In this document: positions 18,512 through 62,422 of the stretch, in pieces
How the letters are laid out: each line of letters starts with the position of its first letter
How positions within the stretch are numbered: the stretch's first letter is position 1
Source of the DNA: a virus
Lineage: Duplodnaviria > Caudoviricetes
Virus record (IMG/VR): IMGVR_UViG_3300014203_000012
Coordinates: 119,920 to 183,919 of that record
DNA: 64,000 nucleotides
Direction: 5' to 3' (one strand)
Translations under genes and position numbers: made by a program
Notes under the pieces: generated by a model
Seen by the model: the letters and a program-made list of their open reading frames with translations, nothing else
What the model was told of the DNA's origin: nothing
Database searches by the model: none

Positions 18512-18545
18512 ACAAACCATAGAGACTACCACATTGTGGTAGTCT
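18512..18545. repeat. 34-bp direct repeat copy 1 (contains terminator hairpin AGACTACCAC-ATT-GTGGTAGTCT)
   Basis: ACAAAC(C/A)ATAGAGACTACCACATTGTGGTAGTCT, 33/34 identical to 19774-19807. Confidence 0.9.
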
Positions 18546-18552
18546 CTTATAT

Positions 18553-19683
18553 CTATTTTTCACCATATGCCGATTTGGTATCAGTTAAGAACATTGTAAA
18601 TTTTGTTCTTGGAATGATTTCTAATATATTATCCCATAATAAAGATATATTAGATAGATTAGGTATTAGTGTAGGAGTGGTACATGTCGTAATATCACCT
18701 AAACCTAATTGAGGGTTATTACCATATGCTTTTACAGTACCGTCATCTAGTAATACCATTGAATAATAATACCCACTTGCTATTTGTTTTACATTAGTTA
18801 GATTAGGTATTAACGTAGGACTAGTACGATTAACTGCATCACCTAACCCTAATTGTCCGCCAACATTATATCCAAAGGTATATACTGTACCATCGGTTAT
18901 TAATATCGATGTGTGGTGGGTTCCACCAGATATTTGTTTTGCGTTAGATATACCAGGTATTAAAGTAGGAGTAGATATTGGATTTGTGGTATTGCCTAAA
19001 CCTAATTCACCGAGACTATTATAACCAAATGCTTTTATTGTACCATCATTTAATAATGCAAACGAATTATAACTACCTCCTGCTATTTGTTTTACGTTAC
19101 TTAGACTAGGTATTAATTTAGGCATTAAACTATTACCAACATATCCTAATTGACCGGAATCATTCAGCCCAAATGATTTTACTGTACCATCATTTAGTAA
19201 TGCTAAAGAATGATATATACCACCTGCTATTTGTTTTACATTAGTTAAATTAGGTATTATTGTAGGAGTTTTATATGGTGTTGTAGTATTTCCTAACCCT
19301 AATTCACCTTGAGCATTATATCCCCACCCTTTTACAGTTCCATCATTTAATACTGCCAGCGAATGATTATTACATCCTACTATTTGTTTTACATTCGTCA
19401 ATCCAGGTATTAACGTAGGAGTAGATATCGGGGTTGTGGTATTGCCTAAACCTAATTGACCATCCGTATTATTACCAAATGAATATAATGTACCGTCATT
19501 TAGTAAAACTAAAGAATAATCATACCCACATGATGTTTGTTTTACGTTAGTTAAATTAGGTATTAACGTAGGGGTGTCGAGATTTGTGATATTACCTAAA
19601 CCTAATTGACCGGTAGTGTTATAACCAAATGATTTTACTGTACCATCGTTTAATAAAACTAAAGAATGTAGATTTACACTCAT
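18553..19683 (-). CDS. RCC1/BLIP-II-type repeat protein, 7 repeats (beta-propeller)
   Basis: Seven ~51-aa repeats SLxLLNDGTVKxFGxNxxGQLGLGN...PTLIPxLxNVKQI; ATG 19683 after GAGGTG. Confidence 0.9.
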   Translation of the reverse strand: MSVNLHSLVLLNDGTVKSFGYNTTGQLGLGNITNLDTPTLIPNLTNVKQTSCGYDYSLVLLNDGTLYSFGNNTDGQLGLGNTTTPISTPTLIPGLTNVKQIVGCNNHSLAVLNDGTVKGWGYNAQGELGLGNTTTPYKTPTIIPNLTNVKQIAGGIYHSLALLNDGTVKSFGLNDSGQLGYVGNSLMPKLIPSLSNVKQIAGGSYNSFALLNDGTIKAFGYNSLGELGLGNTTNPISTPTLIPGISNAKQISGGTHHTSILITDGTVYTFGYNVGGQLGLGDAVNRTSPTLIPNLTNVKQIASGYYYSMVLLDDGTVKAYGNNPQLGLGDITTCTTPTLIPNLSNISLLWDNILEIIPRTKFTMFLTDTKSAYGEK

Positions 19684-19773
19684 TATACTCACCTCTTATT
19701 TCTTTTACACAATATTCATATATTTGATTTAGTATTATAAAGGTGTTGTATATATTCAGCTCCCATATATTAA

Positions 19774-19807
19774 ACAAACAATAGAGACTACCACATTGTG
19801 GTAGTCT
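19774..19807. repeat. 34-bp direct repeat copy 2
   Basis: Matches 18512-18545; the two copies bracket the RCC1 gene and its promoter. Confidence 0.9.
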
Positions 19808-19823
19808 TATATAATTATTCTTT

Positions 19824-20354
19824 TTATTTAACCCAAGGTGGGCAAGGAGCATATACTTTTAAGCTTTCATAACCTTGAACGAAAGCTTCACCGCGCCCAA
19901 AGATTTTATTGCCATCTGCATCCACACCAATTTGTTTAGGATATGGACGACTGCCAGCTTCAACTTCTTTTAAACTAACTGCAACGTCAGACTTTTCTCT
20001 GCCGCCTAATTGAAGCTTGCGACCGCAATGAACATAAGTGTTGATAAATTCTTTTGAAACGTCAACAAGGTTTTCTGCTTCTGCACGTTTGAATTCATAT
20101 TTTTCCATAAGAGTAGCAGCTTCATTTTGTGGGATTTTTGCTGCGCCTGACATCGCCGAAGCAACCATTGCTCGAACTGCCTTAGAAGGATTGAAAGAAT
20201 CAGATTTTCCTTCTTTTGAATAAATGCCAACTTCGTATGAAGTGTCATTCATCATTGCCCTCATTACACGAGCCTCATCTTTACGACTACTCGTTACTTG
20301 AGTGATTGTGCCTTTAATTTCCTCGATTAGTGCTTTTACTGTTTCCTTTTCCAT
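19824..20354 (-). CDS. Hypothetical protein
   Basis: 176-aa ORF, RBS AGGGGG. Confidence 0.75.
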   Translation of the reverse strand: MEKETVKALIEEIKGTITQVTSSRKDEARVMRAMMNDTSYEVGIYSKEGKSDSFNPSKAVRAMVASAMSGAAKIPQNEAATLMEKYEFKRAEAENLVDVSKEFINTYVHCGRKLQLGGREKSDVAVSLKEVEAGSRPYPKQIGVDADGNKIFGRGEAFVQGYESLKVYAPCPPWVK

Positions 20355-20448
20355 TTTTACTTCCCCCTATTTTAGTTTATTTGGATATAGTTGATTATAA
20401 ATAAGTTACATGTATAATAAATTATTATACATGTAATTGTATTGAAAC

Positions 20449-21498
20449 CTAATTAACCGTAAACTTTTGATTGCCTACAGATAAACTATATGCAAACATT
20501 TGTATATTTTGACTTAATTCATCTATATCTTTTTCAATTTTCGATAATTTCGTATATACATACTGAACTTGGTCACTGGATACTTCTGTCATAAGACTTT
20601 CACACATCGCCAAATACATACGCTCTAAATCTAACTCACTTTCTATACGAAAGCGTTTAAGTGTAAGACCATCAAGCAATGGTGAATTATCTCCAACGAT
20701 AGGCATGAACTTATCAAGATTGGCAAAGATATCTTGTATATCAAAAGTTTTAGTTCCCACTATACAAAATTCTTGTAATACCACAGTTTTAGATGCGGTG
20801 TTAAATTTTTTATTTAGTTCATTAAGATATGTAGTGGCGTCGCTTATCTTAAGAGATGAGCAGGCTGCACTGCAACAATTCTCTGGAAATTTTATATTTG
20901 TTGAAGGTTTTTCTTTCATATTAGGATTTACTTCACTAATTGGAACGGATTTAAGTATCTCATCATCTTTTAGCTCACGAGGTTTAATACATTTAGTTTT
21001 TTCACTTGACTTTGTTTTGACAAGCGGAGAGCCGAACATATCTTCCAGGTTTGATTTATCTTCTACCAAATCTAGACATGGTACAGGATCGTTTTCAGAT
21101 ACTATTCTTGAGAAATATAGTTCTATATTATTATGAGTTATATGCCAACCAACTGCACTCAATACTAACTCTTTAACAAATTTAATATTTTTAATACCTT
21201 TGAATTTTTTGTTATCGGTATTAATGTCTATTTGACACGCTGAATCTAGACAAAGCGCATGTACTGTTTGAGGTACGATGTTAAAGCATAATGCATTATC
21301 GTAGAATCCAACATACTTTATGATCATATTTACAGCAATACCGGTATATGGATTATTGAAATATTCAAATATTACTGGAAGATCGTTAATAGAAATTGTA
21401 ACTTTATCTACTCCTGCCTTATTTAGAATAGCAATAAATTCTTGTAAATTGAAGTCTTTCATATTTACATTATTCGGAACTACACAAAGTTTAATCAT
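20449..21498 (-). CDS. Hypothetical protein
   Basis: 349-aa ORF, RBS GAGGTG. Confidence 0.7.
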   Translation of the reverse strand: MIKLCVVPNNVNMKDFNLQEFIAILNKAGVDKVTISINDLPVIFEYFNNPYTGIAVNMIIKYVGFYDNALCFNIVPQTVHALCLDSACQIDINTDNKKFKGIKNIKFVKELVLSAVGWHITHNNIELYFSRIVSENDPVPCLDLVEDKSNLEDMFGSPLVKTKSSEKTKCIKPRELKDDEILKSVPISEVNPNMKEKPSTNIKFPENCCSAACSSLKISDATTYLNELNKKFNTASKTVVLQEFCIVGTKTFDIQDIFANLDKFMPIVGDNSPLLDGLTLKRFRIESELDLERMYLAMCESLMTEVSSDQVQYVYTKLSKIEKDIDELSQNIQMFAYSLSVGNQKFTVN

Positions 21499-21593
21499 TT
21501 TTATACACCTCTTATTATATATTCTTTACCCTAGTGTCCGCACTCCAATCAAGTTCTAATTTAATATTGCCTTAGTATAAGATGATTAGCATT

Positions 21594-21728
21594 TTATTTT
21601 CCTCCTATTTTTTTAAGTCTTACCACAGGATATATGAGTTTAATTGGTTTACACCTTTCATGTAATATTTGATCTATTTGTTCTCTACTGCATTTAGATA
21701 TTGTATCTAGAAAATCTGATTTATTCAT
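21594..21728 (-). CDS. Small hypothetical protein (44 aa, not in ORF track)
   Basis: GGAGG RBS then MNKSDFLDTISKCSREQIDQILHERCKPIKLIYPVVRLKKIGGK-stop. Confidence 0.5.
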   Translation of the reverse strand: MNKSDFLDTISKCSREQIDQILHERCKPIKLIYPVVRLKKIGGK

Positions 21729-21812
21729 ACCATATACCTCCAATAATTAGTTACTTATAAGTCTATACTCTTTCAATTATTTATATTTACACCCATCTAA
21801 ATGGATACAGCA

Positions 21813-21824
21813 AACACTAGAGTA
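21813..21824 (+). promoter_or_regulatory. Late-type promoter AACA-N6-TA
   Basis: AACACTAGAGTA ~30 nt before RNAP beta start; same pattern precedes most structural genes. Confidence 0.55.
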
Positions 21825-21852
21825 AATTTGATACAGAAGGTGGTGGATAACA

Positions 21853-24800
21853 ATGTCTGTATACTTAGACGATATAAAACCTCTAAGGCTAACAAAGACA
21901 GAGTTTTTTCTTCCTATTAACGAAGAGGATAAGAAAAAGAACAGTGCAATATTCTTACTAACTCCTAATCTAGAAAGTTCTATAAATATGATGAAGCACC
22001 CATTGGCGCTCAACCGAAGGTTGTTCGAATCATATTATATAGAGAAGGACATCGCTTTTATTCTTAACGAGTCAAGGCAATTAGTAGTTGGTGAGGATAT
22101 AATACCAGTGGAATACAACCCACTAAATCCTATGAATTCTATAAAGATGCATCATAAAAAATATCATAAGTCAATTGTAAAACCAGTTGAGATGATAAAG
22201 GAAGGACTAGTCCCTAAACTTACATTTTATCACGGGACATCACTAAAATTAAATTCGTTACATCCAACCTCTCCAATGCTTGGTAATAAATTAGAAGATG
22301 CTAAATGGGCTACTTATCTATGGAGAGATAAAACAAAAGCTAGATATTTCGCTATTCAAAAAACTTGTAGAAATATATTAAGAAAAGAAGACAAAGATAA
22401 AAACTATATGAAACCTGCATATGATATAGCATCTGGTAAATCATTTTTATTAGAAAAGGATTGGGATTGTGTAAAAGATATGGTGGTTGGAAATGTAGCA
22501 TATGTATACACAACAGAAGTCCCAGCAAATAAGATAGGGTTTGGGCATTGTAGTTCTATTGCAGAGTTTACAACTGATATTGAATTGCCATTATTAAAAA
22601 CTGAACGTATATATATAACAAGTGCTATATTTGATGAGGCTTTCATTAAAGTAGGAGAATCAGAATTAAAGGATAGAACTGCTAATGTACTAAATACAGC
22701 TTCTCGTGGTATATTAAAATATATAATGCACGATCAAGATGAAATATTTAAGAAAGAAATGATTATTAAAAAGAAATTAAAAAATAAAGAAATATCACCT
22801 GGAGATAATCTAAATATAATCTTAGATAATCTAGAAGAGCAGGCTATACTTTCAGAAGCTGTAGAGCAGATAGTAGTAGAAGATTATGATAGACCACGAG
22901 GAGAATATTCTATTAATGAAGACTTTGTTCATACTAACTATGAGCATGAAGAATATAAGATTTTCTTTGGCGACGCAGTTCAATCTATATTAGAAGACGA
23001 AAACCCTAAATCTAAATTGTACTCTTCCGCTATGCGTAAACTTCTCTATTCTGAGAGGATTAAGAACCAAAAAGAGTGTGTTCTTATCCATGATAAAGTA
23101 AAAACAGATCTGACATTTATCAAGTATACCTATATCAACTATGCTCTTTATAAACAAAAGAATCTATTTATAGATTGGTCTTACTATACTCAAACCTTCT
23201 TTAAGAATAATATTTATAAGATGGATAGAGCGGTTGACCTATACTTTGAGTTTATCACTAGATTCTTGGATGATGCTAGATTAGATGATAACGGGTATGT
23301 AAAGAAAACAGTATTTGTTCCAGTACAGGATTGGATAAAAACTGATATTGTTGCGTGGGATTATACCAAAGACATCAACCCTATTTCAGTTATCTATAGA
23401 CTACTCAAACGTAAATCTACTCTATTAAAAGAAAAATGGGGTGGATATAATTTTGTATTCCTATCAAACAACGCATACTTCAAACTAGACTTCAATGATT
23501 TTGATGATAAAGGACTTCCTTTATTCACCATGCTAGTAAGCAAGCTTAGTACTGGTCAAACACAAGATGCTGAGTTTGAAAAGAACGATTCCCCAAAAGC
23601 TATTCTCCATAAGATAATAGATAATATTGAAGATGGTGGAATAGAAATAAGCAATCTTACTGGTGGTACCTCTAAACTTTCTCCTGAAGATATCAAAAAG
23701 AAACTCGATATGGGAGGATCAGATAATATCGCCGATGATAAGCGCCCTAAAGAAGAAGTAGAAGATGAGAAGAAAGCTAAATTAGTTACTCATATAAAGG
23801 ATACCGCAGAAAAGTCTACAGATGAAAAGAATGCTATGGAAAATCTAAATTCTGATATAGATAGCGAATGGGTTAAAAATCTCATAACTGACCTACAATC
23901 TGAAGATGGACCAAATATGAACATAGCTAGAAAAGCTAGAATAAGTAGTCTTAGATCTGACTTTGCTAATAAAAAATTAAATAATACAAAGATTGAAGAT
24001 ATCATCTATCAAAATAAAAGGATGACTGAATTGGAAACTGATGTGATTCCGATTAAGAATATAAATGAAGAATGGAATGATGTTAAGTTTACTACGTTTA
24101 GTAAGAACTACAATCTAGATTCAGATATATATGCTATACTGGCCGATATGGGAACTAAATCAGATCCTATTATGGTTATAGATGTGGATCGTGTTGACAC
24201 TTCTACTTCAGAAGATTATGTAGAAACTTGGTCTGTAAAATTTGAAGATGCAAACGGTAAAAGATTTACCACAAAACTAGATATTCCTAAGTTTGTAAAT
24301 AATAGATTTATGAAGCTTAGAGGCAATCTAAAAGTAGTTAGTGGTCAATTGGTACTACTCCCTATTATCAAGACAGATGAGGATACTGCTCAAATAGTAT
24401 CGTCATATAATAAAATCTTTGTAAGACGGGTAAATCCTAGTGGTGGTTCTAAAACTACACGAAGCGTAAGTAAGTTAATTAAAGCTCTATCTAAATATGA
24501 AGGAACTAAAATCAAAGTATTTGAAGGGGATAATAGTTTCGTATGTGAAAAATATGATCTACCTATTGAATACAGAGATTTAGCCGGAATGTATAGCAAG
24601 ATAGTATTATCAGATGGAAGTTATTATTGCTTTAATATGGATGATATAAAAACACTACCATTGGAATATCCAAAAGAAGATAGTAGTAGAATTCCGTTCT
24701 ATGTAAATGCAAAGGGTAAAGTGGAAACATGCGCAGATGATCCAGCTAATATAATCCTGGATAGATTGTGTTTTGATGATATAGAATTTGCAAAGATCGT

Positions 24801-27003
24801 AGAAGGTATAAAGCCAGATAAAAGATTAAGTTATACGACTGCTAGTATTCTTAACACTGATATTCCTATTATAGTTGTTATGGCATATAGTGAAGGCTTA
24901 CAAACTGCTATGAAAAAAGGTAATGTAACATTCCAATTTACCGATAAACGACCAGACTCGAATACGCCATCTATTAAATTCTCAGATGGGTATATAACCT
25001 ACGATACCAGTATAAGTAGTTCTCTTTTAATGGCTGGTCTTTTGCAATGTGACACGGCTAGTTATTCTATTAAGGATATCAATAAAAAAGAAATGTGGCT
25101 TGATTTCTTAGATAACTTTGGTGGAAGAATAAAAGCAGATGGGATGGATAACTTCTATGATTTGATGATGGACCCAATGACTAAAGAAATATGCGAGTTA
25201 TATAATCTACCATCAGACTATGTAGAAGCTTTAGGCTATGCTAGTGATCTATTAGTAGATACAAAATTCAATAGGCATGTAGATATAACTGGTAATAGAA
25301 TAAGAACCAATGAAATAGTTGCTGGGTATGTATATAAAGCATTATCTAAAAGCTATGGCGAATACAAAAATCAGTTAAAGAGAAATAAGAAAGATGCTTC
25401 TCTTACTATAAAACAATCTGCGGTTATAGATGCTATTTTAACAGATCCTACGTCAACAGATTTATCTATTTTAAATGCACTGCTTGAAGTGGAATCTGCT
25501 AATGCTATGTCGTTTAAAGGCTTATCTGGTATGAACTCAGATAGAAGTTATAGTTTGGATAAAAGAACGTATGATGAATCTATGCTTGGAGTGTTAGCTT
25601 CTTCAACAGGATTTGCTGCAAATGTTGGTATTACTAGACAGGCTTCTATAAATAGTAATGTAAAAGGAAATAGGGGATTGATATCTACCCCTAAAACTAA
25701 AGATGCAAATACATTAAATATGTTGTGCGCTACAGAGGCTTTAACTCCTTTTGGATCTACACATGACGATCCTATTAGAACAGCAATGGCTTTTGTTCAA
25801 ACTTCTAAGCATCAAATGCGGGTAAAGAAATCTTCCCCTAATCTTGTAACTATGGGAATGGATGAGGCTTTACCGTATATTACTTCAGATACTTTCTCTC
25901 ATAAATTCAAAGGTAAAAAGGGTAAGGTAATAGAAGTTACTGATGACTATCTTATATTTGAAGAAACCGGAGATGCTGTTAGGAGTGATGGAGTTACATC
26001 TAGAGGATATGTAGATCTGAGAGAAACTGTTATGAAGAACTCAGATGGTGGATTTTATGTAACAGTTAAGCTTGATCCTTGTGTTAAGAAGGGCGATACA
26101 TTGAAATATAACGATATCCTTGCATATGATAAAACTTCATACTCTAAAGCTATTGGTACAGATAAGACTGAGAAGATAATATCTTATAATATTGGCACTT
26201 TGGCTAAACTTGGAATCCTCACAACTGATGAGGCTTATGAAGATAGTGCTATTATTGTAGATTCCTTAGCTGATTCGTTGACTACGACTTATTGTGTTAA
26301 AAAAGAAAGAGCTTTATCTAAAGATACAAATGTATATAATGTAGCTAAGAAGGGCGATACTATAGAAGAGGGAGATCCTCTAATCATATTCCAAAATGCG
26401 TTTGAAGAGAAAGATGCTAATGCTTTACTCAAATCTATAACAGATGATGATGTGGAAGCTATATCTGACTTAGGACGTATACATGTGAGATCTAAATTAA
26501 CTGGCTGGGTTCAGGATGTTAAAATCTATCGTACTTGTGAACTAGACGAGTTATCCCCATCATTAAAGAAACTAGTTAGTTTTTATGAAAAACAAATTCA
26601 AACTAATAAGAAGCTATTTAAAGATAATAAGATTGAAGGTGCTAACTATTTACTAGAACCGGATTATAAGTTACCTTCCACTGGTAAGCTTAAAGGTGTA
26701 GATACTGGAGTTCTAATCGAATTCTATATCAAGTGTGAAGATAAAATGGGTATTGGTGATAAACTTGTATATAGCTCAGCAATCAAGGGTGTAGTAAAAG
26801 ATATTATACCTATAGGTGAAGAACCATATACAGATTTTCATAAAGATGAACAAGTAGATGCGTTATTAACTACATTATCTATCAATGCTCGTATGGTTGG
26901 ATCTATAATCTTGAATGGATCTTTAAATAAAGTTCTTGTAGAGTTGGATAGACAATGTAAAGAAAAACTAGGGATTCCGTGGAAAAATTTAAAAGATATG
27001 TAA
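21853..27003 (+). CDS. rpoB: Phage RNA polymerase beta-like subunit (probably virion RNAP) with long N-terminal extension including an ART-like domain
   Basis: IPKF..RFMKLRGNLKVVSGQL (beta N-terminal region), EALTPFGSTHDDPIRTAMAFVQ, AYEDSAII, GDKL..AIKGVV, DALL..LSINARM; ends before beta region I. Confidence 0.9.
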   Translation: MSVYLDDIKPLRLTKTEFFLPINEEDKKKNSAIFLLTPNLESSINMMKHPLALNRRLFESYYIEKDIAFILNESRQLVVGEDIIPVEYNPLNPMNSIKMHHKKYHKSIVKPVEMIKEGLVPKLTFYHGTSLKLNSLHPTSPMLGNKLEDAKWATYLWRDKTKARYFAIQKTCRNILRKEDKDKNYMKPAYDIASGKSFLLEKDWDCVKDMVVGNVAYVYTTEVPANKIGFGHCSSIAEFTTDIELPLLKTERIYITSAIFDEAFIKVGESELKDRTANVLNTASRGILKYIMHDQDEIFKKEMIIKKKLKNKEISPGDNLNIILDNLEEQAILSEAVEQIVVEDYDRPRGEYSINEDFVHTNYEHEEYKIFFGDAVQSILEDENPKSKLYSSAMRKLLYSERIKNQKECVLIHDKVKTDLTFIKYTYINYALYKQKNLFIDWSYYTQTFFKNNIYKMDRAVDLYFEFITRFLDDARLDDNGYVKKTVFVPVQDWIKTDIVAWDYTKDINPISVIYRLLKRKSTLLKEKWGGYNFVFLSNNAYFKLDFNDFDDKGLPLFTMLVSKLSTGQTQDAEFEKNDSPKAILHKIIDNIEDGGIEISNLTGGTSKLSPEDIKKKLDMGGSDNIADDKRPKEEVEDEKKAKLVTHIKDTAEKSTDEKNAMENLNSDIDSEWVKNLITDLQSEDGPNMNIARKARISSLRSDFANKKLNNTKIEDIIYQNKRMTELETDVIPIKNINEEWNDVKFTTFSKNYNLDSDIYAILADMGTKSDPIMVIDVDRVDTSTSEDYVETWSVKFEDANGKRFTTKLDIPKFVNNRFMKLRGNLKVVSGQLVLLPIIKTDEDTAQIVSSYNKIFVRRVNPSGGSKTTRSVSKLIKALSKYEGTKIKVFEGDNSFVCEKYDLPIEYRDLAGMYSKIVLSDGSYYCFNMDDIKTLPLEYPKEDSSRIPFYVNAKGKVETCADDPANIILDRLCFDDIEFAKIVEGIKPDKRLSYTTASILNTDIPIIVVMAYSEGLQTAMKKGNVTFQFTDKRPDSNTPSIKFSDGYITYDTSISSSLLMAGLLQCDTASYSIKDINKKEMWLDFLDNFGGRIKADGMDNFYDLMMDPMTKEICELYNLPSDYVEALGYASDLLVDTKFNRHVDITGNRIRTNEIVAGYVYKALSKSYGEYKNQLKRNKKDASLTIKQSAVIDAILTDPTSTDLSILNALLEVESANAMSFKGLSGMNSDRSYSLDKRTYDESMLGVLASSTGFAANVGITRQASINSNVKGNRGLISTPKTKDANTLNMLCATEALTPFGSTHDDPIRTAMAFVQTSKHQMRVKKSSPNLVTMGMDEALPYITSDTFSHKFKGKKGKVIEVTDDYLIFEETGDAVRSDGVTSRGYVDLRETVMKNSDGGFYVTVKLDPCVKKGDTLKYNDILAYDKTSYSKAIGTDKTEKIISYNIGTLAKLGILTTDEAYEDSAIIVDSLADSLTTTYCVKKERALSKDTNVYNVAKKGDTIEEGDPLIIFQNAFEEKDANALLKSITDDDVEAISDLGRIHVRSKLTGWVQDVKIYRTCELDELSPSLKKLVSFYEKQIQTNKKLFKDNKIEGANYLLEPDYKLPSTGKLKGVDTGVLIEFYIKCEDKMGIGDKLVYSSAIKGVVKDIIPIGEEPYTDFHKDEQVDALLTTLSINARMVGSIILNGSLNKVLVELDRQCKEKLGIPWKNLKDM

Positions 27004-31136: not shown

Positions 31137-31229
31137 AATATAACCTCCTATATTAGATTATTATATTGTAAACGAGTATATTATTATACACATAATTAAA
31201 CAAATATAAAATAAGAGAGGTGTTTATAA

Positions 31230-31766
31230 ATGGGTGCAAACGATCATTCTTTAGTTTTACTAAACGATGGCACAGTAAAAGCATTTGGGGATAATATCGA
31301 AGGTCAATTAGGTTTAGGTAATACTACTTCACCAATTACTAGTCCTGCACTAATATCTAGTCTAAGTAATGTAAAACAAATAGGCTGTGGCGGTACTTAT
31401 TCTTTAGTTTTACTAAACGATGGTACTGTAAAAGCATTTGGCTATAATACTAGTGGTCAATTAGGTTTAGGTAACGTAACCACACCAATTACTAGTCCTA
31501 CGTTAATACCTAGCCTAATTAACGTAAAACTGATAGCATGTGGTGGGGAGTATTCATTAGCATTACTAAGCGATGGTACAGTAAAGGGATTCGGTCAAAA
31601 TACACATGCCCAATTAGGATTAGGTAATATCGTATCACCAAAGAGCACTCCTACACTAATACCTAATATAAATAACGCTGCATTCTTATGGGATAATACA
31701 TTATTTTCAATAACAAGATTTGTAATGTTCTTATCCGACGCCAAATCAATATATTCTAGTATATAA
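31230..31766 (+). CDS. RCC1/BLIP-II-type repeat protein, 3 repeats
   Basis: Three repeats of same consensus as 18553 and 61098 genes, same C-terminal tail; hairpin 31769-31797 downstream. Confidence 0.85.
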   Translation: MGANDHSLVLLNDGTVKAFGDNIEGQLGLGNTTSPITSPALISSLSNVKQIGCGGTYSLVLLNDGTVKAFGYNTSGQLGLGNVTTPITSPTLIPSLINVKLIACGGEYSLALLSDGTVKGFGQNTHAQLGLGNIVSPKSTPTLIPNINNAAFLWDNTLFSITRFVMFLSDAKSIYSSI

Positions 31767-31860
31767 ATACAAGGCTACAGTAATACTGTAGCCTTGTCTC
31801 GTGTATAAATATATTAGATATACGACTATATAGTAATCTAAAGGGGGGGGGGTATATATT

Positions 31861-32526
31861 ATGAGTGGTAAGCTTATTGCGTTTGATGGGCTGGATTGTA
31901 GTTTCAAAGAAACTAATTCTAAGATGTATTTAGAATATTTATTACAGAAAGGCGAAAAGGCAGTATTGTATTCTTTTCCAAGATATAATATGGAGCAATC
32001 GGTTTTTGTGAGAGAATATTTAGCTGGTGCTTATGGTAAAAAGAATGAACTCGATACTACGGTAATATCCATGTTTTATATGATGGATATGTTTGATTGT
32101 GCACAAAAGGAAATCATACCAAAACTAAAAGAAGGATATACTGTTGTTCTTGATAGATATTGGTACTGTAATCTATTTTATCGTTTAGGTTTAGGTGGAG
32201 CTTATAGTGCAATAGTAAGCCATAATATCATATCACAAATTGAAAATCTTGCAAGAAAACTAGATCTACCGAAGGCTGATATTGTAGTAAAACTCAAATC
32301 AGATCCCGACGTTATGCTTGATTTCATTCACAAAAAGAATTCCAAGGCAGATCAGCACGAGTCAGATGATAAATATTTATTAACTGTGGCTAAAGTGTTT
32401 GATGTAATAGATCTTAGTAAATATGTGACAGATCGGGTTGTGGATGTTTATACTACTAAAGATAAACAAATCCGCAATAAAGAAGATATCTTTAATGATA
32501 TACTTGCTGGTATTAATCATGAATAA
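31861..32526 (+). CDS. tmk: Thymidylate (dNMP) kinase
   Basis: LIAFDGLDCSFKET P-loop variant, FPRY, VVLDRY motifs. Confidence 0.85.
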   Translation: MSGKLIAFDGLDCSFKETNSKMYLEYLLQKGEKAVLYSFPRYNMEQSVFVREYLAGAYGKKNELDTTVISMFYMMDMFDCAQKEIIPKLKEGYTVVLDRYWYCNLFYRLGLGGAYSAIVSHNIISQIENLARKLDLPKADIVVKLKSDPDVMLDFIHKKNSKADQHESDDKYLLTVAKVFDVIDLSKYVTDRVVDVYTTKDKQIRNKEDIFNDILAGINHE

Positions 32527-32977: not shown

Positions 32978-34300
32978 ATGAACTTTTTTTCAAAATTAAT
33001 AGGTCTATTTAAAAAAGATAAAGCATTTGATAAGAAAGCAAAATTAATAGTAGACGAGTATGGAGATCTAAGCGTTAGTCTTATATCTTTTAGCGATGCA
33101 TCGTATATGTCAAGCTTTGCTGCAAAAATGTGTGTCGGGGCTCCAGTAGAAGAGGATTATGATAAACGGTTAGGTCATATCTCTCGTGTAATTTCTAGAG
33201 GGCACGAATCTACTATTGCACATTCTAATATTATAATGCTTGTATTACTCGATAGTGCATTTAATTCTAAATTCATCGAGATAGCTCCAGCATTAAAATT
33301 TGCAGAGTATGTCACATCTGAGCAAGAAGATGGGTCTAATGCGATCTTAATTGGCGGTAGTGTTAGAGCATATAAATATTTTTTCCGTGAAGTAAAAGAT
33401 TTGAGCAACCCTATTTGTAATGCAATTAAAGAAACGTTATATCAATCAGCTGAATCTGCTTTCTTTGAAGATTTTATTGCAGATGGGTTAATGGATAAAG
33501 CTAAGTTTCAGTTCTATCCAATTGCTAATACAAATGTTGTAAGCGAAGAAGTAGCTGATGCAGATGGGGAAAAATATATGCAAGATTATTGTGAAGCCAC
33601 TGTCAAAGCTCAGAATATTTTAAAGGGTAAAGTATGTGATATTGCATATGCTGATGATGTATTAGGTATTTTGGATAAAGTTGAAGGATATGGTTTTACC
33701 CTTCGCGATATATTAAAACTCACAACTTGTACTGTTATTTTCCACGATATTTCTAGGATTATCTCTCAGCAACTTACTCGCCATCTTGCTGGTATTGCGC
33801 AAGAATCTCAACGATATGTAGATTACAGTACTGCTAAATTTATAGATCCTACTCAATTTAATAAAAAATATGATATGACTAAAAATTATAAAATTGAGAT
33901 TGGTCTTAATAAATATGAAATGTCTTCTACTGAACTTGGTAAAATGCTTCTTTTAATATATCCTCAACTTGTCGCGCAGGGTATGCTTAAACAGGATGCT
34001 AGAGGATTCTTGGTGCAGAATGGAGAAACTAAACTTGTTATGACATTTACACTTTCTAACTTAATTCATTTTATCAAGGAAAGAAAACCTAATGTTGCAC
34101 AGCCAGAGGCACAATATATCACAAATGATATGATCGAAGGGTTATACAAGTATGAAGCAACAACGTATCTATTTAGCAGTATTGGTGTTGATGGGCTAAT
34201 CAATATTTGTGAAACTCCAGTATATAAAGCTAAAGAAGGAGAAGATTTAGCAGCGATAGAAAATTCTATTGACGAGATTATATCTGAGGAGGAAATATAA
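32978..34300 (+). CDS. thyX: Flavin-dependent thymidylate synthase
   Basis: GHESTIAH and ISRIISQQLTRHLAGIAQESQRYV, ARGFL motifs; long form. Confidence 0.85.
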   Translation: MNFFSKLIGLFKKDKAFDKKAKLIVDEYGDLSVSLISFSDASYMSSFAAKMCVGAPVEEDYDKRLGHISRVISRGHESTIAHSNIIMLVLLDSAFNSKFIEIAPALKFAEYVTSEQEDGSNAILIGGSVRAYKYFFREVKDLSNPICNAIKETLYQSAESAFFEDFIADGLMDKAKFQFYPIANTNVVSEEVADADGEKYMQDYCEATVKAQNILKGKVCDIAYADDVLGILDKVEGYGFTLRDILKLTTCTVIFHDISRIISQQLTRHLAGIAQESQRYVDYSTAKFIDPTQFNKKYDMTKNYKIEIGLNKYEMSSTELGKMLLLIYPQLVAQGMLKQDARGFLVQNGETKLVMTFTLSNLIHFIKERKPNVAQPEAQYITNDMIEGLYKYEATTYLFSSIGVDGLINICETPVYKAKEGEDLAAIENSIDEIISEEEI

Positions 34301-52247: not shown

Positions 52248-53468
52248 ATGAAGCGAAAAAGTAATACTATTACTAAGAAAGAAGATATAGACTATTTTTG
52301 CTCTTTAGACCTGGAAACGCTAACTAGCTTATCTTTTATTATGGAACTCTTTGGCGAGTTTGGTAATAAACGTAGATTTAATCCGTATGATATAGTTACA
52401 ATTCCAGCAGATTCCTACGGTCCCGAAGGTAAACGTAATAAGAAACCTTTCACAACAACTGTAGGACTATGGATATTTAATAAAGCATTTATAGAGCCGG
52501 AGTTGTTTGATTTATTAGGATATATATCAGATCCAATAACAAAAAAAGTTGCAAGCAAGATAAATTCAAAAATCGGGTATGCTGTATTAGAAGATAAAAT
52601 TCCTTTAGAAGCGATGAAAAATTATATAATGACAACTCAAAAGTTCCAACCATATTCTAATATTCTTTGTCCTAGTTTTACAATGAATATGCTTCTCATA
52701 ACAGATAAGCTAGCTTCTAGAAAAAAAGCTCTTTTGGATAAATATAAAGTTCAGATATCTGCAGGTGACGAAAAAGTAGTATCTATTATAGAAAAGGATC
52801 TACTGGATTATTCTAAAGACTTATTAGATGATGACCCATCTATGGATCTTTATAAGTCTGGTGCTAAAGGGTCTTTTGGTAATAACTTTAAGAATCTATT
52901 TGTCATGCGCGGAGCAATTAAAGATCCAGATCCTACTAAAGGATACGATATTGTGACAGATAGTTATATTGATGGTATTAAGAAAGAAAACTATAGCGCT
53001 ATGGCTAAGTCACTATCCGCTGGTCCTTATGCTAGAGCAAAGAAAACTGCATATGGTGGTTATTGGGAGAAACTTTTCTTAAGAGCATTTCAACACATAG
53101 TTTTGTTACCAATCGGATCAGATTGCGAAACAAAGAGAACAATCAATGTAACAATAAGCGATAAAAATATTAGTATGCTTATGTATAACTATATACTAGA
53201 AGGAAGTAGATTAATAGAGCTAACTTCTGATAATACCGATCAGTATATGGGCAAAACTGTTAAGATGCGTTTCTCTTCTTTATGTGAAGATAAGAAAGGT
53301 ATCTGCAACAAATGTGCTGGCAACCTATTCTATAGATTAGGTATACAAAATGTCGGGGTAGCCACACCACAGCTTGCATCTAGGCTGAAGGTTATTTCAT
53401 TAAAGGCGTTCCATGATAGTCAAGTACAGTTACAAGAAATAGATGTGGCTAAAGCGTTTGGAATATAA
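52248..53468 (+). CDS. rpoC: RNA polymerase beta' C-terminal subunit (probably virion RNAP)
   Basis: SGAKGS..LFVMRG, KTAYGGYWEKLF (bridge helix), DCET, CEDKKGICNKCAG (Zn), SLKAFH (trigger loop); late-type promoter 52224-52235. Confidence 0.9.
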   Translation: MKRKSNTITKKEDIDYFCSLDLETLTSLSFIMELFGEFGNKRRFNPYDIVTIPADSYGPEGKRNKKPFTTTVGLWIFNKAFIEPELFDLLGYISDPITKKVASKINSKIGYAVLEDKIPLEAMKNYIMTTQKFQPYSNILCPSFTMNMLLITDKLASRKKALLDKYKVQISAGDEKVVSIIEKDLLDYSKDLLDDDPSMDLYKSGAKGSFGNNFKNLFVMRGAIKDPDPTKGYDIVTDSYIDGIKKENYSAMAKSLSAGPYARAKKTAYGGYWEKLFLRAFQHIVLLPIGSDCETKRTINVTISDKNISMLMYNYILEGSRLIELTSDNTDQYMGKTVKMRFSSLCEDKKGICNKCAGNLFYRLGIQNVGVATPQLASRLKVISLKAFHDSQVQLQEIDVAKAFGI

Positions 53469-54081: not shown

Positions 54082-57000
54082 ATGAAACTAAACGTAAAAT
54101 TACAGTATCCGTTTAATGTAGACTACGAGTTTAGAACTAGATTAGAGCGAATCAATCTAGACAAAGAAATGGAAGCAGATATCGCTGCTAATAAAGGGTT
54201 CTTTATTAAAGAACCACAGGCTATTAATAAGACCTTGAAGAGTTCAGATTCTATTTATTCTGAACGCTTTATGAAAACGCTGCAAGACCCAGATGCATTT
54301 ACCGATAGGTATAGTTGCAAGGATCATTGCACAGAAGGAAGAGATAATAAGGGTATGACTTGCCCAATATGTCATACCGAAGTAAAATTTGTTGGTGATG
54401 ATTTTGAAATATTCGGGTGGATTAGAATTAAGGAGCCATATGCTATCATCCATCCAAACTTGTACAAATCTATTGCATATTTTATCGGCGTGGGAACTCT
54501 CGAAAATATTATCGAGCCAGAGATAGAATTGGATTATAATGGATTACCAGTAAGTGGATATGACAAAAGGGTTAATAAAAAGAAAGCAAAAAGAAGATAT
54601 AGCAAACGAACCGGTAAGATAGATGAAACATTTGCCGGTATTGGCATGATGGAATTCAGAGAAAGATTTGATGAGATCATGGATTACTTCTTGACTAAAA
54701 ATAAAGGTAACAAACGTGAGTATTATGATGATATCATGGCAAATCGTGATATTATATTCATGCACAACGTTCCGGTTTATTCCACTGGATTGAGACCATT
54801 CAAGACAGAAGGGAAAAGATTTACATTCGAAGGCACTAATGCCATATTTAATATCATGGCAAAGATTGCCGCTAAAATAAACAATGATGAGCTGAGCATC
54901 TATCGTAATAAAAAGTATAGAAATACTTTATTATGGGATATGCAAGAAAAGTATAATAAACTCTATGCGGAAATAGAGAATATTTGTTCAAACAAAAAGG
55001 GTTCTGTAAGAATGCTAGTTGGAGGTAGATGTAGTTTTACCTCTAGACTAGTTATCATTCCAGATCCTCTATTAAGAATGGATGAAATTAAGATATCATA
55101 TTATAGCTTAGTAGAATTATTACAGCAAACTATAATAAATATCTTAGCTAGTTCTTTTAACACATCATATGCTAAAGCATATATGATGTGGTGGCGTAGT
55201 CAGATCACACCTAGCCCACGAGTAAGAGAAATTATTGAAAATCTCATACAAGCTAGTGGTGGTATAAATGTATTAATTAATCGGAATTCAGTGGAGTTCC
55301 CCAACATGGCGACATGTTGTTAAGGCTACCTTTTGAATTGCTGGGAAGTGCTAAAGCTTAGAACAGCTACAACGTAATCTTAACGGATAAGCGTGAATGC
55401 CGTCGAAAGACAGAAAAAATGTTTTAAGATGTCCTACGCTGAGAAAAAGGCATACTGTAGAGTATGCCGCTAAGGGATATAAACAATGTGCAATCAGCAG
55501 CGAAGCTCGTTAAATACGAGAACGTTCAACGATCATCGAAAACGCGGTTATTTGTCTTGTACGATAACTGGAAGTGAGTAGAGTAGCCTCCAAGCGGAGT
55601 GCGAAGTGAAAGGCATCTTTCTGAGATGAAGATATGATCTGGTATCCTATTATAATGATAGGGAAGTTCATAAAGAGAACTGCACTGATTAGCGCCCAGT
55701 GTGAACGTACGCCAACAATAAACTATGGATCTATTATGGCTATGCGAATCGTAGGCATTAATGATGACTATACTATGAGTTTACCATTGCAAATATTAAC
55801 TCCATTTGCAGCTGACTTTGATTTGGCTGCTTAGCAGCCTAAGTCCCACTATATAGTAATATAGAGTGGTATCCTTTTTAATTGCTGGAAAGCGCTAGTG
55901 TTTCTAAAGCTACAACGTAGAGAGTGATCTCAAGCGTGAATGCCACCGAAAGGTAGAAAAAATTTAGAAGACGGAATATGGCGAAAGTCTAAGTTCCATC
56001 AGACGAAATGTGTTCCCAGCAGCGAAGTGTCAAAAAGATATAATGTATTGGCTTTGATAATGAAAGGGTGCGATATTAATGAATCAACAAGATATCGTTT
56101 ATGCAAATTATTATAGATCAAAGCTTACACAGATCGTCGCTAGAGCTGACGAGGTATTTCTTGATATAAATTTTCCTGATTGTATTGGTTATATGGTAAG
56201 CAATTATGGAAGAGTGTATAGTAAACCAAGCGATATAATGGTTACTCAATTTCAGAATAGAAATGGTTATATGGAGTGTAAAATATATGAGGTGAATAAA
56301 CTTATACACCGATTAGTATTTCAAACATTCCACCCTATTCCAAATCCAGAAGATTATGACGTTAACCACATAGATACATGTAAACAAAATAATCTTGATT
56401 GGAATTTAGAATGGATGACTAGATCTGAAAATTGTATACACGCTTTTAATAATGGGTTATCTAAGCAAGGAGAGCTCCACCCAAATTCTAAATATAGCAA
56501 CGAGCAAATTCATACAATATGCAAATGTTTAGAAGATGGTATGGGGTATATGGGCCTGTGTGCATTCTTAGGGATAGAATACAATCATAATACCTGCACA
56601 CTTTTACATAAAATAAAATCAGGACGTAGTTGGAAACAAATATCAAGTCAATACAAAATAAGATCTTTTTGATGAACGTTCAACGACTATCGAAAACGCG
56701 GTTATTCGTCTTGTACGATAACTGGAAGTGAGTAGAGTAGCGCCAAGTGGTGGGGAAACCCTTAAAGCGAAACGGAAGGCATCCTTAACGGGATGGTGAT
56801 ATAGTCTACTATCCAACTGTAATTGTTGGGAAGTTCATAAGAGAACTGCACAGATTAACGACCTGTGTGAATGTAAGGGGTGATTGTCTGAATATCCTGT
56901 ACATACCGAATAAGGCTTTCTGGGAATCTGCAATATTCTGCTTCAATCCTAGAAACTCAATGTTGATTTCTAAGAACGATGGCAGATTTAATAATCAAGT

Positions 57001-57861: not shown

Positions 57862-57867
57862 TTTATA

Positions 57868-59178: not shown

Positions 59179-59201
59179 GAATATAAAGGGGGAGAATTTA
59201 A

Positions 59202-59366
59202 ATGAATACTCAAAAAAATAATAAGAAATATCCAACTGTAAAACAAAAGGATATGATTGTAGAAAAGTATAACACTGGATCTAGTTTAAGTAAATTAGAA
59301 ACGGAATTTGGATTTCCTCAAGATGTTATACGTAGAGTAATTGTCATTCGTGGTCTAGAAAAATAG
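59202..59366 (+). CDS. Small HTH protein (54 aa, not in ORF track)
   Basis: GGGGGAG RBS; TVKQKDMIVEKYNTGSSLSKLETEFGFPQDVIRRVI, similar to C-terminus of 58155 gene. Confidence 0.65.
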   Translation: MNTQKNNKKYPTVKQKDMIVEKYNTGSSLSKLETEFGFPQDVIRRVIVIRGLEK

Positions 59367-59429
59367 AAGAAATAAACCTTTACCCAAACATACGGGTAAA
59401 GGTTTATTTTTTATAAGAGGGGTGATTAT

Positions 59430-60743
59430 ATGCGTAAAGAAGACAGACCACTAATTTATATGCCTATTGAAAAGCCGATAGAATGTATACGGGAATTCAA
59501 TAAAGCGTTAAATGTTAGTTTATGCGTTCCTTCAGTTTCTAATTCATACTCTATGTGTGTAGAGTATATAACTGGGTGGATTGAATCTAAATTCCAATCA
59601 GATTATTTTAAAAGTACTCATATCGAAGGTATGAATATACTATCTGATTTTAGATCACATGATAAAAATGAGTTGGTTAAACGTTTAAAACCAGCTCTTT
59701 CTATCGTACCGCAAATAGATAATGAGTTTGATAGAGAGCATTTAGATCTATATAATTATGGGACTAATCTTCTCTATAATAAATGTAGTTATAAAGATGC
59801 GTTCTTTAAAGATCTAGGAAAGAAAAACTTTATATCTATAGCAATGGAAGTCTTACAAATGAACTTTAGTATTAGAATTAAAGTATCATCTAAAGCTCAT
59901 GCATTAGATCTTGCTAAGTTTATTCAAATGGCTTTCAGATCTAATGGGACGCAAGGAAAGTATGTGGATATGGATTTTCATATTCCTACAGAATTAATGA
60001 TGAAAGTTGCAATAGATAGCGGATTTGAAATAAGTAATAACGAAGTTACTGATATGCCTGGATTCTTGTATTATCTTAATAGACACTCTCAGTTGCCATT
60101 CATGTATAAACTGAGATCTATAAAGGGTAAGTATGAATACTTTATTAAAATGAGCGAGATGTATATTCATACTAGAACTAATAATGTTTCAGTAGATGAT
60201 GGAGAGCGCGAAGGTCAATTGATAAATAACTTTATTGTTGATTTTGATTGCGTTGTAAGATTTCCAGTTCCTAAGTTCTATGCATATTATTCATTAGAAC
60301 AGCATGAGCTAATAAGAGGACAAAAGATGGATGGAACATACACAGTTTACGACCTTTGTATGACTAATATTCCTCAAGTTAATTCTAAAGGTTGGAATCA
60401 ATATATGACAACCGAATATTTAGATGATGACGCTAACTATAAAGCCAAGACTCCAGTAGAAATTAGTCTGGAAGATCTATTCAGTGGAACAGGAAAAGGG
60501 CGGCTAAAGGAGATTGCTGATTACACTAAGTCACTATACCTGTCTCCATCAGTATTTATCGAAATAAAGCTTTTCAATGACACTAAAGAGGTTGAAACGG
60601 AGATAGACTGGACTAACTATACATTAAAATCTAAGATCGCTATGGTTAATATTAAGTCATTTATAGTTATTTACACAGATCTGGGGTATATAAACGAACA
60701 GCAAATAGCTATAAACAAATACAAGGATTCTAGAATTAAATAA
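59430..60743 (+). CDS. Probable virion structural protein (tail completion/neck-like)
   Basis: 437 aa, AACA-N6-TA at 59387-59398; KPALSIVP and beta-rich pattern; function inferred. Confidence 0.45.
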   Translation: MRKEDRPLIYMPIEKPIECIREFNKALNVSLCVPSVSNSYSMCVEYITGWIESKFQSDYFKSTHIEGMNILSDFRSHDKNELVKRLKPALSIVPQIDNEFDREHLDLYNYGTNLLYNKCSYKDAFFKDLGKKNFISIAMEVLQMNFSIRIKVSSKAHALDLAKFIQMAFRSNGTQGKYVDMDFHIPTELMMKVAIDSGFEISNNEVTDMPGFLYYLNRHSQLPFMYKLRSIKGKYEYFIKMSEMYIHTRTNNVSVDDGEREGQLINNFIVDFDCVVRFPVPKFYAYYSLEQHELIRGQKMDGTYTVYDLCMTNIPQVNSKGWNQYMTTEYLDDDANYKAKTPVEISLEDLFSGTGKGRLKEIADYTKSLYLSPSVFIEIKLFNDTKEVETEIDWTNYTLKSKIAMVNIKSFIVIYTDLGYINEQQIAINKYKDSRIK

Positions 60744-60759
60744 GATAAAGGATAATATT

Positions 60760-61047
60760 ATGAATAAAACAGAATATCTACTATCATGCCTAATTGAAGA
60801 AAGTTCTGAGGTAATAAAAGCCACAACTAAATCTTTACGTTTTGGGTTGAATGGGACTTATTGTGGCAGCGCAACAAACGCACAAGATATAGAAAAAGAA
60901 TATCATGAACTAGTCGCAATAATTGAGATGTTGGAGGCTCACGGAATAATCACCCTATCTAATCGTAATATCCAAATAAGAGAGAAGAAAGAAAAATTAC
61001 TTTTATATATGGAGCACTCTAAAAATCTCGGTACGTTAATTGAATAA
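60760..61047 (+). CDS. MazG-like NTP pyrophosphohydrolase
   Basis: LIEESSEVIKA...IEKEYHEL (ExxE...ExxD/E). Confidence 0.6.
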   Translation: MNKTEYLLSCLIEESSEVIKATTKSLRFGLNGTYCGSATNAQDIEKEYHELVAIIEMLEAHGIITLSNRNIQIREKKEKLLLYMEHSKNLGTLIE

Positions 61048-61090
61048 ATTATACACCCCTATACTATTTCTAGTATAGGGGTGTATAATT
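61047..61090. terminator. Bidirectional terminator downstream of RCC1 gene
   Basis: AATTATACACCCCTATACTA-TTTC-TAGTATAGGGGTGTATAATT 20-bp perfect stem. Confidence 0.85.
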
Positions 61091-61097
61091 TGTCTTT

Positions 61098-62243
61098 TTA
61101 TATTTTGCCATATGTAGATTTAGTAACAGTCTTGAACATTACAAATCTTTTTATTAGGATGACTAATAAAATATTACTATCCCATAATAAAGTTACGTTA
61201 CTTAAATTAGGTATTAACGTAGGAGTAGTGCGAGTTGTTACATCACCTAAACCTAATTGACCATTATCATTAATACCAAATCCTTTTACTGTACCATCGT
61301 TTAGGAGAACTAAAGAATGACTATATCCGTCAGATATTTGTTTTACATTAGTTAGACTGGGTATTAACGTAGGTGTAGTAATTGGCGTTGTAGTATTACC
61401 TAACCCTAATCGACCATCGCCATTATAACCAAATGCTTTTACTGTACCACCGTTTAGTAAAACTAAAGAACGAATATTACCACATGATATTTGTTTTACA
61501 TTAGTTAGACTGGGTATTAATGTAGGTGTAGTAATTGACGTTGTAGTATTACCTAATCCTAATTGACCATAGCCATTATACCCAAATGCTTTTACTGTAC
61601 CACCGTTTAGTAATACTAATGAATAATTTTGTCCACCTGATATTTGGGTTACGTTAGTTAGACTAGGTATTAACGTAGGAGTGGTATATGGAGAAGTAGT
61701 ATTACCTAAACCTAATTGTCCATTATTATTATACCCAAATGCTTTTACTGTACCATCATTTAGTAAAACTAAAGAATGACTACTACCACATGCTATTTGG
61801 TTTACATTACTTAAACTAGATATCAGTGTAGGGCTGTGTTGATCTGTAGTATTTCCTAAACCTAATTGACCAATATTATTACCAAATCCATATACAGTAC
61901 CATCGTTTAGTAAAACTAATGAATGATTACTACCACATGATATTTGCTTTACGTTAGTTAGACTAGGTATTACTATAGGACTAGTATATGGAGTAGTATT
62001 ACCTAAACCTAATTGACCACTAGTATTATAACCAAATGCTTTTACTGTACCATCGTTTAGTAAAACTAAAGAATGACCATTACCACATGCTATTTGTTTT
62101 ACGTTACTTAGACCAGGTATTAATGTAGGAGTAGTAATTGGAGTAGTTGTATTACCTAAGCCTAATTGCCCACTAGTATTATCGCCAAATGCTTTTACTG
62201 TACCATCGTTTAGTAAAGCTAAAGAATGCATATTTTGTCCCAT
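61098..62243 (-). CDS. RCC1/BLIP-II-type repeat protein, 7 repeats (beta-propeller)
   Basis: Seven near-identical repeats; ATG 62243 after GAGGTG; AACA-N6-TA at 62271-62282. Confidence 0.9.
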   Translation of the reverse strand: MGQNMHSLALLNDGTVKAFGDNTSGQLGLGNTTTPITTPTLIPGLSNVKQIACGNGHSLVLLNDGTVKAFGYNTSGQLGLGNTTPYTSPIVIPSLTNVKQISCGSNHSLVLLNDGTVYGFGNNIGQLGLGNTTDQHSPTLISSLSNVNQIACGSSHSLVLLNDGTVKAFGYNNNGQLGLGNTTSPYTTPTLIPSLTNVTQISGGQNYSLVLLNGGTVKAFGYNGYGQLGLGNTTTSITTPTLIPSLTNVKQISCGNIRSLVLLNGGTVKAFGYNGDGRLGLGNTTTPITTPTLIPSLTNVKQISDGYSHSLVLLNDGTVKGFGINDNGQLGLGDVTTRTTPTLIPNLSNVTLLWDSNILLVILIKRFVMFKTVTKSTYGKI

Positions 62244-62422
62244 TATAAACACCTCTTATTCTTTTATATTTAATCATGTGTTGTATAGCTATGAGTTAAA
62301 CAATATCTCTATACTAGAGATAGTATAGGGATATGCTCTGTTTGTAATAGTGGTATATCTTGATGATATATTATAAAAGTGAGAATAAATAAAATAATTA
62401 TAATATAAGGGGAGATTTTATT

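Follow-up and report, generated by a model that had tools for sequence, protein, structure and literature searches.

A 64,000-nt stretch of the IMG/VR virus record IMGVR_UViG_3300014203_000012 (Duplodnaviria; Caudoviricetes), here called the window, carries three genes for RCC1-like β-propeller proteins that end in a common C-terminal tail. The window spans bases 119920-183919 of the 183,919-bp record, which is ∼75% complete and has a G+C content of ∼32%. A preliminary description of the window had listed three stand-alone genes with seven, three and seven repeats, and open reading frames (ORFs) were found at the positions it gave: R5 at 18553-19683 on the minus strand (376 aa, seven blades and the tail), R6 at 31230-31766 on the plus strand (178 aa, with a first-type, an internal and a last-type blade followed by the tail) and R7 at 61098-62243 on the minus strand (381 aa, seven blades and the tail). 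When paralogs were counted across the whole record, the family turned out to be larger than claimed. It comprises seven genes, R1-R7, with 5, 7, 7, 7, 7, 3 and 7 blades (43 blades), three of them inside the window, and no stray RCC1 fragments were found elsewhere in the record.

All three window ORFs passed the Pfam cut-offs for RCC1/RCC1_2 (E 1e-29 to 1e-82); RCC1 scores were 239, 101 and 270 bits for R5 (E 3e-72), R6 and R7, against a cut-off of 21.7. The two seven-blade window copies also exceeded the WD40_RLD cut-off of 150 bits (319 and 336 bits), whereas the three-blade copy, with 122 bits, stayed below it. The blades are uniform, 48-51 residues long and without insertion. As no blade contains a β-wedge insertion, the proteins do not qualify as RCC1 proper, the guanine-nucleotide exchange factor of Ran. 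To our knowledge, Ran is absent from bacteria, and the label 'regulator of chromosome condensation' that databases attach to such genes reflects the domain name only. A signal peptide is absent, and the protein begins inside a blade, in its A-B loop.

AlphaFold2, run on R7 with a 62-sequence alignment, returned a closed seven-bladed propeller with a mean predicted local distance difference test score (pLDDT) of 94.2, and of 98 up to about residue 355. The top Foldseek match was UVR8 (template modelling (TM) score 0.87, root-mean-square deviation 1.5 Å, 30% identity), followed by HERC, RPGR and RCC1 domains. The strands of each repeat follow the order VKQISC, G-xx loop, HSLVLL, NDG turn, TVKxF, a long G-x-N-xx-GQLGLGN-T... 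loop, PTLIP and SLSN loop. The C-terminal strand NVxLLW takes the place of the inner strand that the first blade lacks and closes the ring against the three N-terminal strands, a 'velcro' closure that falls within the confident part of the model. The preliminary description had likened the repeats to BLIP-II/RCC1 propellers; the RCC1 half of this comparison holds, with an RCC1/UVR8-like fold and 51-residue repeats, but BLIP-II proved a poor comparator, its match to R7 being far weaker (query TM score 0.56; phmmer E 4e-11). By repeat count, R6 (three blades) and R1 (five blades) fall short of a closed seven-bladed ring.

Downstream of the velcro strand, all seven paralogs share the tail LLWD...(R/K)F(V/T)MF...KS.Y, in which W, D, F, M, K and Y are invariant. 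A hidden Markov model (HMM) of the tail, which recognized that of R5 at E 1e-18, matched only the seven RCC1 genes in a six-frame search of the genome. The common tail noted from the window genes is therefore kept in every further paralog and occurs in no other protein of the genome. The last ∼26 residues of the R7 model have pLDDT values of 42-51 and are unplaced. We considered that the tail might be a degenerate extra blade and rejected this, as the tails scored negatively with the blade HMM.

Column entropy over all blades agreed with the earlier claim of a near-invariant scaffold and variation at two sites per blade. The hypervariable columns are 4 and 5 (G-xx-H; 2.95 and 3.07 bits) and 21, 23 and 24 (G-x-N-xx-G; 2.98-3.14 bits), a third, milder variable spot spans columns 33-38, and invariance reaches 88% or more in 23 columns of the scaffold. 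The combination of residues at the five hypervariable columns is unique in each of the 43 blades and is drawn mostly from Y, N, S, G, Q, T and D, with no K and only three R and three E. A phmmer alignment pairs columns 4-5 with the W and R of the GWRHT motif in UVR8 and columns 21-24 with its W-x-x-x-G segment; these residues form the dimer and partner-binding face of UVR8. A four-strand meander brings its A-B and C-D loops to a common end of the sheet, so that all variable columns are predicted to lie on one face of the propeller, and the conserved NDG turn and SLSN loop on the opposite one; this placement, based on DSSP strand order and the UVR8 alignment, has the variable sites clustering as the preliminary description had anticipated. 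The tail exits the propeller at the A-B loop and should therefore emerge on the variable face.

The repeats behave as one pool. On average, two blades have a nucleotide identity of 0.74 if they belong to the same gene and of 0.73 if they belong to different genes, and on a blade tree the gene label changed 27 times, compared with 29.2±1.7 times after shuffling, so that blades do not cluster by gene. First blades grouped together (Shimodaira-Hasegawa-like approximate likelihood ratio test (SH-aLRT) 93), as did four last blades (SH-aLRT 95), and R1b3 and R1b5 form a recent intragenic pair (SH-aLRT 99). After blades from five homologs in four further phage lineages had been added, the lineage label changed only five times (minimum 4, shuffled mean 32.8), showing strong clustering by phage lineage. 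Each lineage spells its own scaffold in every blade, for example GQCGTG...QLTLYTIP in a related 236-kb jumbo phage, yet in every lineage it is the same loop positions that vary. Synonymous codons of the scaffold are position-specific (ATA in 42 of 43 blades, GTA in 39 of 39, CCT in 41 of 42 at one Pro column and CCA in 22 of 25 at another), with a heterozygosity of 0.26 compared with 0.60 expected from genome codon usage. Together, the lack of clustering by gene, the clustering by lineage and the homogenized codons show concerted evolution across the whole blade pool, in which terminal blades are protected by their unique flanks. R6, which consists of a first, an internal and a last blade, and R1 are accordingly best explained as in-frame internal deletions. 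A 76-nt tract of R7 (61999-62074, minus strand) that covers the loop codons for YNTS is identical to 31399-31474 of R6 at 74 of 76 positions, exactly as first reported, and the lineage-specific homogenization of blades fits the diversification by repeat exchange proposed there.

Within this uniform scaffold, the five hypervariable columns stay diverse. In all pairwise Nei-Gojobori comparisons, the proportion of nonsynonymous differences (pN) at the hypervariable columns was 0.585, and that of synonymous differences (pS) was 0.48 at these columns and 0.375 in the scaffold. With the comparison restricted to 21 disjoint nearest pairs, hypervariable pN exceeded scaffold pS by a factor of 1.65 (bootstrap 1.33-2.03). 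Under the GY94 model on a fixed tree, the nonsynonymous-to-synonymous rate ratio (ω) was 1.89 for the hypervariable columns, 0.69 for the third loop and 0.19 for the scaffold. The rate comparison proposed in the preliminary description thus gave a clear contrast between loops and scaffold, but the likelihood ratio test for ω > 1 was only borderline (p about 0.06); diversifying selection is indicated, not proven. We regard the structural and evolutionary description of the family as solid.

The same data can be read without any special selection: moron-like cassettes would have been multiplied by recombination, the loops would be the unconstrained parts of a recently amplified repeat, and the tail a remnant of a longer ancestral C terminus. 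The borderline test fits this explanation, as do the facts that any RCC1 repeat varies in its loops, that truncated three- and five-blade copies exist and that homologs continue into longer C-terminal regions from the same LWD strand. It accounts poorly, however, for nonsynonymous divergence at the five columns that exceeds scaffold synonymous divergence 1.3- to 2.0-fold, for 43 of 43 blades being unique at these columns despite homogenized scaffold DNA, and for the same positions varying in four other phage lineages whose scaffolds were homogenized independently. Nor would it predict that the tail residues W, D, F, M, K and Y are invariant in seven of seven copies and that all seven ORFs, promoters and terminators are intact. 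We therefore consider this explanation doubtful.

Variation confined to a few codons, many of which are AAT or AAC in the consensus, is also what a diversity-generating retroelement or another targeted mutator writing the loop codons might produce. However, no match to a reverse transcriptase (PF00078) and no template-repeat/variable-repeat pair were found in the 184-kb record, and the variable columns contain Q, M and E, which adenine mutagenesis of AAY codons cannot make. As the record is ∼75% complete, the absence of a reverse transcriptase is not absolute; nonetheless, its absence from the record argues against such an element as the source of the variation, and we consider this origin very improbable.

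Each paralog is, to judge from its signals, a unit of its own. The record encodes split and fused multisubunit RNA polymerase subunits, and its nearest cultured relatives are AR9, PBS1 and their kin; as identity is only ∼36% for one β-type RNA polymerase subunit, the virus is a distant AR9-like jumbo phage. Genes for multisubunit β-type RNA polymerase subunits lie in the window at 21853-27003, 52248-53468 and 54082-55323, all on the plus strand, and one of them is a 1716-aa ORF, apparently a fused or extended form. The late-promoter consensus of AR9 has been mapped experimentally as AACA-N6-TA, with the final A as the start site (PMC5312081). This motif stands 28-53 nt before the ATG in six of the seven copies, and R6 has a promoter-like TACA-N6-TA (31187-31198, plus strand), one mismatch from the consensus. 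In R5 (19736-19747, minus strand) and R7 (62271-62282, minus strand), the presumed transcription starts are 53 nt and 28 nt 5′ of the ATG.

Genome-wide, AACA-N6-TA precedes 30 of 168 crude gene calls, whereas shuffles gave 14.7±3.2 and the antisense strand 5; within genes, it occurs in 7 of 148 windows. Its position peaks 30-50 nt 5′ of start codons, and virion structural genes are among the genes it precedes. Further examples of AACA-N6-TA(A) in the window are at 6236-6247, 21813-21824 and 59387-59398. These patterns suggest that the promoter code of the AR9 non-virion RNA polymerase may be conserved in this distant relative. Because the motif matches the AR9 late consensus and also lies 5′ of virion structural genes, late-type expression of the propeller genes is plausible by analogy, and the 'late-type promoter' of the preliminary description is a reasonable inference.

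The leader common to the three window genes, likewise reported earlier, is present: upstream sequences are homologous among copies over ∼45 nt, the ATG of each copy starts 6 or 7 bases after AAGAGGTG, and the shared leader AAGAG(A)GGTG-N6/7-ATG constitutes a strong ribosome-binding site. A strong hairpin follows 3′ of each window gene (-19.5, -20.1 and -26.8 kcal/mol; z from -4.7 to -8.8). That of R6 lies at 31769-31797 on the plus strand (-20.1 kcal/mol, z -6.4) and that of R7 at 61050-61087 on the minus strand (-26.8 kcal/mol, z -8.8). Each gene forms a self-contained unit on its own, in which a late-type promoter motif and a strong ribosome-binding site precede the ORF and a hairpin terminator follows it.

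Direct repeats of 22-57 nt, with the hairpin inside them, bracket four of the seven units, and their sequence differs from unit to unit. The R4 repeat is exact over 51 nt (spacing 1275). R5 is bracketed by 18512-18545 and 19774-19807 (33/34 identical, spacing 1262), the downstream copy holding its terminator hairpin (-19.5 kcal/mol) and the upstream copy a hairpin of -14.7 kcal/mol. The R2 repeat is 27/32 identical (spacing 1242). For R7, the repeat at 61059-61080, within the terminator hairpin, and its degenerate upstream copy at 62309-62330 are 18/22 identical (spacing 1250), with the same stems and a different loop. The 21-nt core of the R4 hairpin (GGTATAGCATTATGCTATACC) recurs at four terminators, in the window region around 27017 and at genome positions 62371, 87699 and 88974; two of these bracket R4. 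Terminators may act as recombination sites. The graded decay of the repeats, from perfect to 82%, looks like the trace of insertions of different ages, each of which would have duplicated a local terminator; it could equally reflect integration via recombination at a matching terminator.

Comparison with other phages points to mobility of the genes. In the 236-kb jumbo phage, an RCC1 gene sits between two structural genes whose homologs are directly adjacent in this record, so that the RCC1 genes are non-syntenic in the two phages. A metagenome scan gave a best match of 67% identity, in phages otherwise unrelated to this record. As the contigs with the closest propellers share nothing else with this genome, the propeller moves between unrelated phages. 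One could imagine a system that is 'plug-in' in two senses, in which the tail is a universal docking peptide that loads any propeller, three- and five-blade forms included, onto one virion acceptor, and in which the units multiply via recombination that duplicates the local terminator hairpin and leaves the 22-57-nt, target-site-like repeats. If true, this would give an AR9-like jumbo phage a self-renewing adhesin library, but we judge the complete scheme improbable.

Propeller homologs with 50-67% identity form the N terminus of larger proteins, encoded in structural or tail-fibre-position modules beside lysis genes. They share the L-W-D strand and then continue into larger C-terminal regions, of 90 residues in P0040 and P0043, ∼240-290 in P0018 and P0006 and at least 870 in L020. 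The 90-residue module of P0040 and P0043 matches phrog_21039 and the C terminus of gp60 of the Clostridium tetani phage phiCT19406A, which has a LamG lectin domain and whose gene lies between those for a discoidin protein and for holin/endolysin. The P0018 gene, preceded by genes for large unknown proteins and a SPRY protein, has an endolysin-like gene immediately after it. These contexts point to distal-tail or host-recognition proteins. The repeats also occur in PHROG 'tail protein' families, and the nearest bacterial homologs carry dockerin, type IX secretion system (T9SS)-sorting or pilin signals. Pfam 'Phage_fiber_C' matches in the homologs lie inside the RCC1 repeats and represent no separate domain; we did not use them as evidence. 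An alignment by eye suggests that the tail is the first hairpin of the module in P0040, P0043, P0018 and phiCT19406A gp60, a weak lead that hhalign did not support, and no separate gene supplying the rest of the module was found by tblastn or with phrog_21039.

We propose that the seven genes encode a set of binding proteins, expressed late and built as RCC1-like propellers. The paralogs would undergo unequal crossing-over and gene conversion, both internally and with one another, which would hold the scaffold uniform; the same exchanges would shuffle loop variants and change blade number from seven to five to three. Selection would keep the loops different and so provide many binding specificities, and the units would spread by recombination at terminator hairpins. 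The variable binder family of the preliminary description stands as far as a propeller family with variation on one face is concerned, with positive selection only borderline. Least certain is where the proteins act. They may be host-adhesion heads borne on the virion and held there by the shared ∼26-residue tail, rather than intracellular inhibitors; we advance host adhesion and docking through the tail as hypotheses, and judge the proposal as a whole about as likely as not.

Produced in the course of infection and acting inside the cell, the same proteins could sequester or inhibit varied host proteins, whether defence or other factors, with the tail serving as a shared regulatory, degradation or oligomerization tag. 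Eukaryotic RCC1-like domains and BLIP-II bind proteins through the variable-loop face, the phage proteins are small, soluble-looking and without a signal peptide, and an arms race with host defence proteins would also produce a diversifying repertoire. On the other hand, the promoter motif is of the AR9 late class common to virion structural genes, homologs are encoded in tail or structural modules and have their propeller fused to a large C-terminal region, the closest bacterial homologs are extracellular proteins, and the loops, nearly uncharged and made up largely of Y, N, S, G, Q, T and D, are lectin- or paratope-like. An intracellular role therefore seems possible but rather unlikely.

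Several observations weigh against virion-borne binders that are diversified by selection and exchange. According to a figure legend on phAPEC6 (PMC7247149), the eleven RCC1-like genes of that phage are given another colour than the 62 proteins that mass spectrometry detected in virions and so are not shown among them, which fits an intracellular role. The tail was unplaced by AlphaFold and no partner for it was found; its exit on the variable-loop face complicates a picture with the anchor below and the binding face up. A comparison of the tail with the P0043-type module by hhalign gave nothing beyond LWDN, at a probability under 1%, and in an AlphaFold model of P0043 itself the C-terminal 90 residues were unplaced (pLDDT 30-54). 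Copies with three and five blades are unable to close a seven-fold ring alone. Fixing ω at 1 for the five columns costs only 1.8 log-likelihood (lnL) units (2ΔlnL 3.6), in a test whose five codons make up a saturated partition and whose tree recombination has blurred. Finally, no close relative genome was found among phage genomes (megablast) or in IMG/VR, so that turnover of the cassettes is not directly observable.

Some neighbouring genes deserve mention. Directly 3′ of R5 is a giant ORF of 4093 aa (window 6285-18566, minus strand), whose homolog in the related 236-kb phage has 3582 aa with Peptidase_C39_2 and Phage_lysozyme matches. As the first ∼40 codons of the listed ORF cross the R5 terminator hairpin, its true start is probably a downstream ATG (MNPVADYIK...). 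Two paralogous virion structural proteins of ∼615 aa (phrog_20401) are encoded at window 4357-6207 and genome 34286-36133, both on the minus strand; both genes have the late promoter motif and each is near an RCC1 unit (R5 and R1, respectively). R6 is followed by thymidylate kinase-like (31861-32526) and thymidylate synthase-like (32978-34300) genes on the plus strand. At 63421-63999 on the minus strand, continuing past the window end, an ORF of short D-I-N/D-G-D-I/L-x-V repeats has a β-helix- or fibre-like look. A row of four or five paralogous genes for 340-465-aa proteins beside structural genes is kept in both jumbo phages, at 1432-8531 of L014 (the related 236-kb phage) and at genome 110002-114592.

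Among known proteins, the phage propellers most resemble the RCC1-like domains of Arabidopsis UVR8, HERC1/HERC2, RPGR and human RCC1, which are likewise seven-bladed with repeats of ∼51 residues. They differ in consisting of the propeller alone plus a 26-residue tail, with near-identical blades, in lacking both the β-wedge insertion of RCC1 and a Trp chromophore cluster, and in being phage-encoded in seven copies, some of only five or three blades. The Streptomyces β-lactamase inhibitor protein II (BLIP-II) is also a seven-bladed RCC1-related propeller that binds its protein partner via loops on one face; its repeats, however, are ∼40 residues long, compared with 51 in the phage proteins, and it is a secreted bacterial protein present in a single copy, whereas the phage proteins have no signal peptide.

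In its mode of evolution, the family matches the concerted evolution, and may match the diversifying selection, of the HNWD (het-d/het-e) WD40 family of Podospora anserina, for which concerted repeats, a few diversifying surface residues, unstable repeat number and a proposed repeat-induced point mutation (RIP) mutator have been described (Paoletti et al. 2007, PMC1805685). In both families, repeats evolve in concert within and between members, a few interaction-surface residues per repeat diversify and repeat number is unstable. HNWD proteins, however, have a WD40 fold and a eukaryotic NOD-like receptor (NLR) context, whereas the phage family has an RCC1 fold and selection that is borderline by formal test. 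The organization of the units recalls the promoter-early stem-loop (PeSL) cassettes of T4-type phages, in which small units of promoter and stem-loop flank accessory genes and are thought to mediate the recombination behind shuffling, deletion and the formation of mini-circles (Arbiol et al. 2010, PMC2839356). The likeness lies in promoter/stem-loop units that flank genes; here, by contrast, the promoter belongs to the AR9 late type, and it is the terminator hairpin that is repeated, with a sequence that differs at each cassette.

Multi-copy RCC1-like genes are common in large phages, where databases label them 'chromosome condensation' proteins. The present record offers a clean case, with 43 blades on one scaffold, five diversifying positions predicted on one face, a shared tail, cassette-like units and a readable late-promoter code. 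If the propellers are host-binding heads, they would explain how host recognition can widen or shift without a dedicated mutator, and the engineering of binders would find a natural template in the scaffold. Sets of such genes in one large phage genome are already known: phAPEC6 has eleven RCC1-like genes of unknown function, with a chromatin-type role guessed (PMC7247149), and phiCD211-like Clostridioides phages have 6-12 RCC1-matching places per record. Compared with these sets, to which identity is below 41%, the genes described here are dispersed single-gene units rather than a tandem row, their shared element is the C-terminal tail and not an N-terminal part, and their bearer is an AR9-like phage with its own multisubunit RNA polymerases; what sets the family apart is its dispersed units, its C-terminal shared element and its AR9-type transcription signals.

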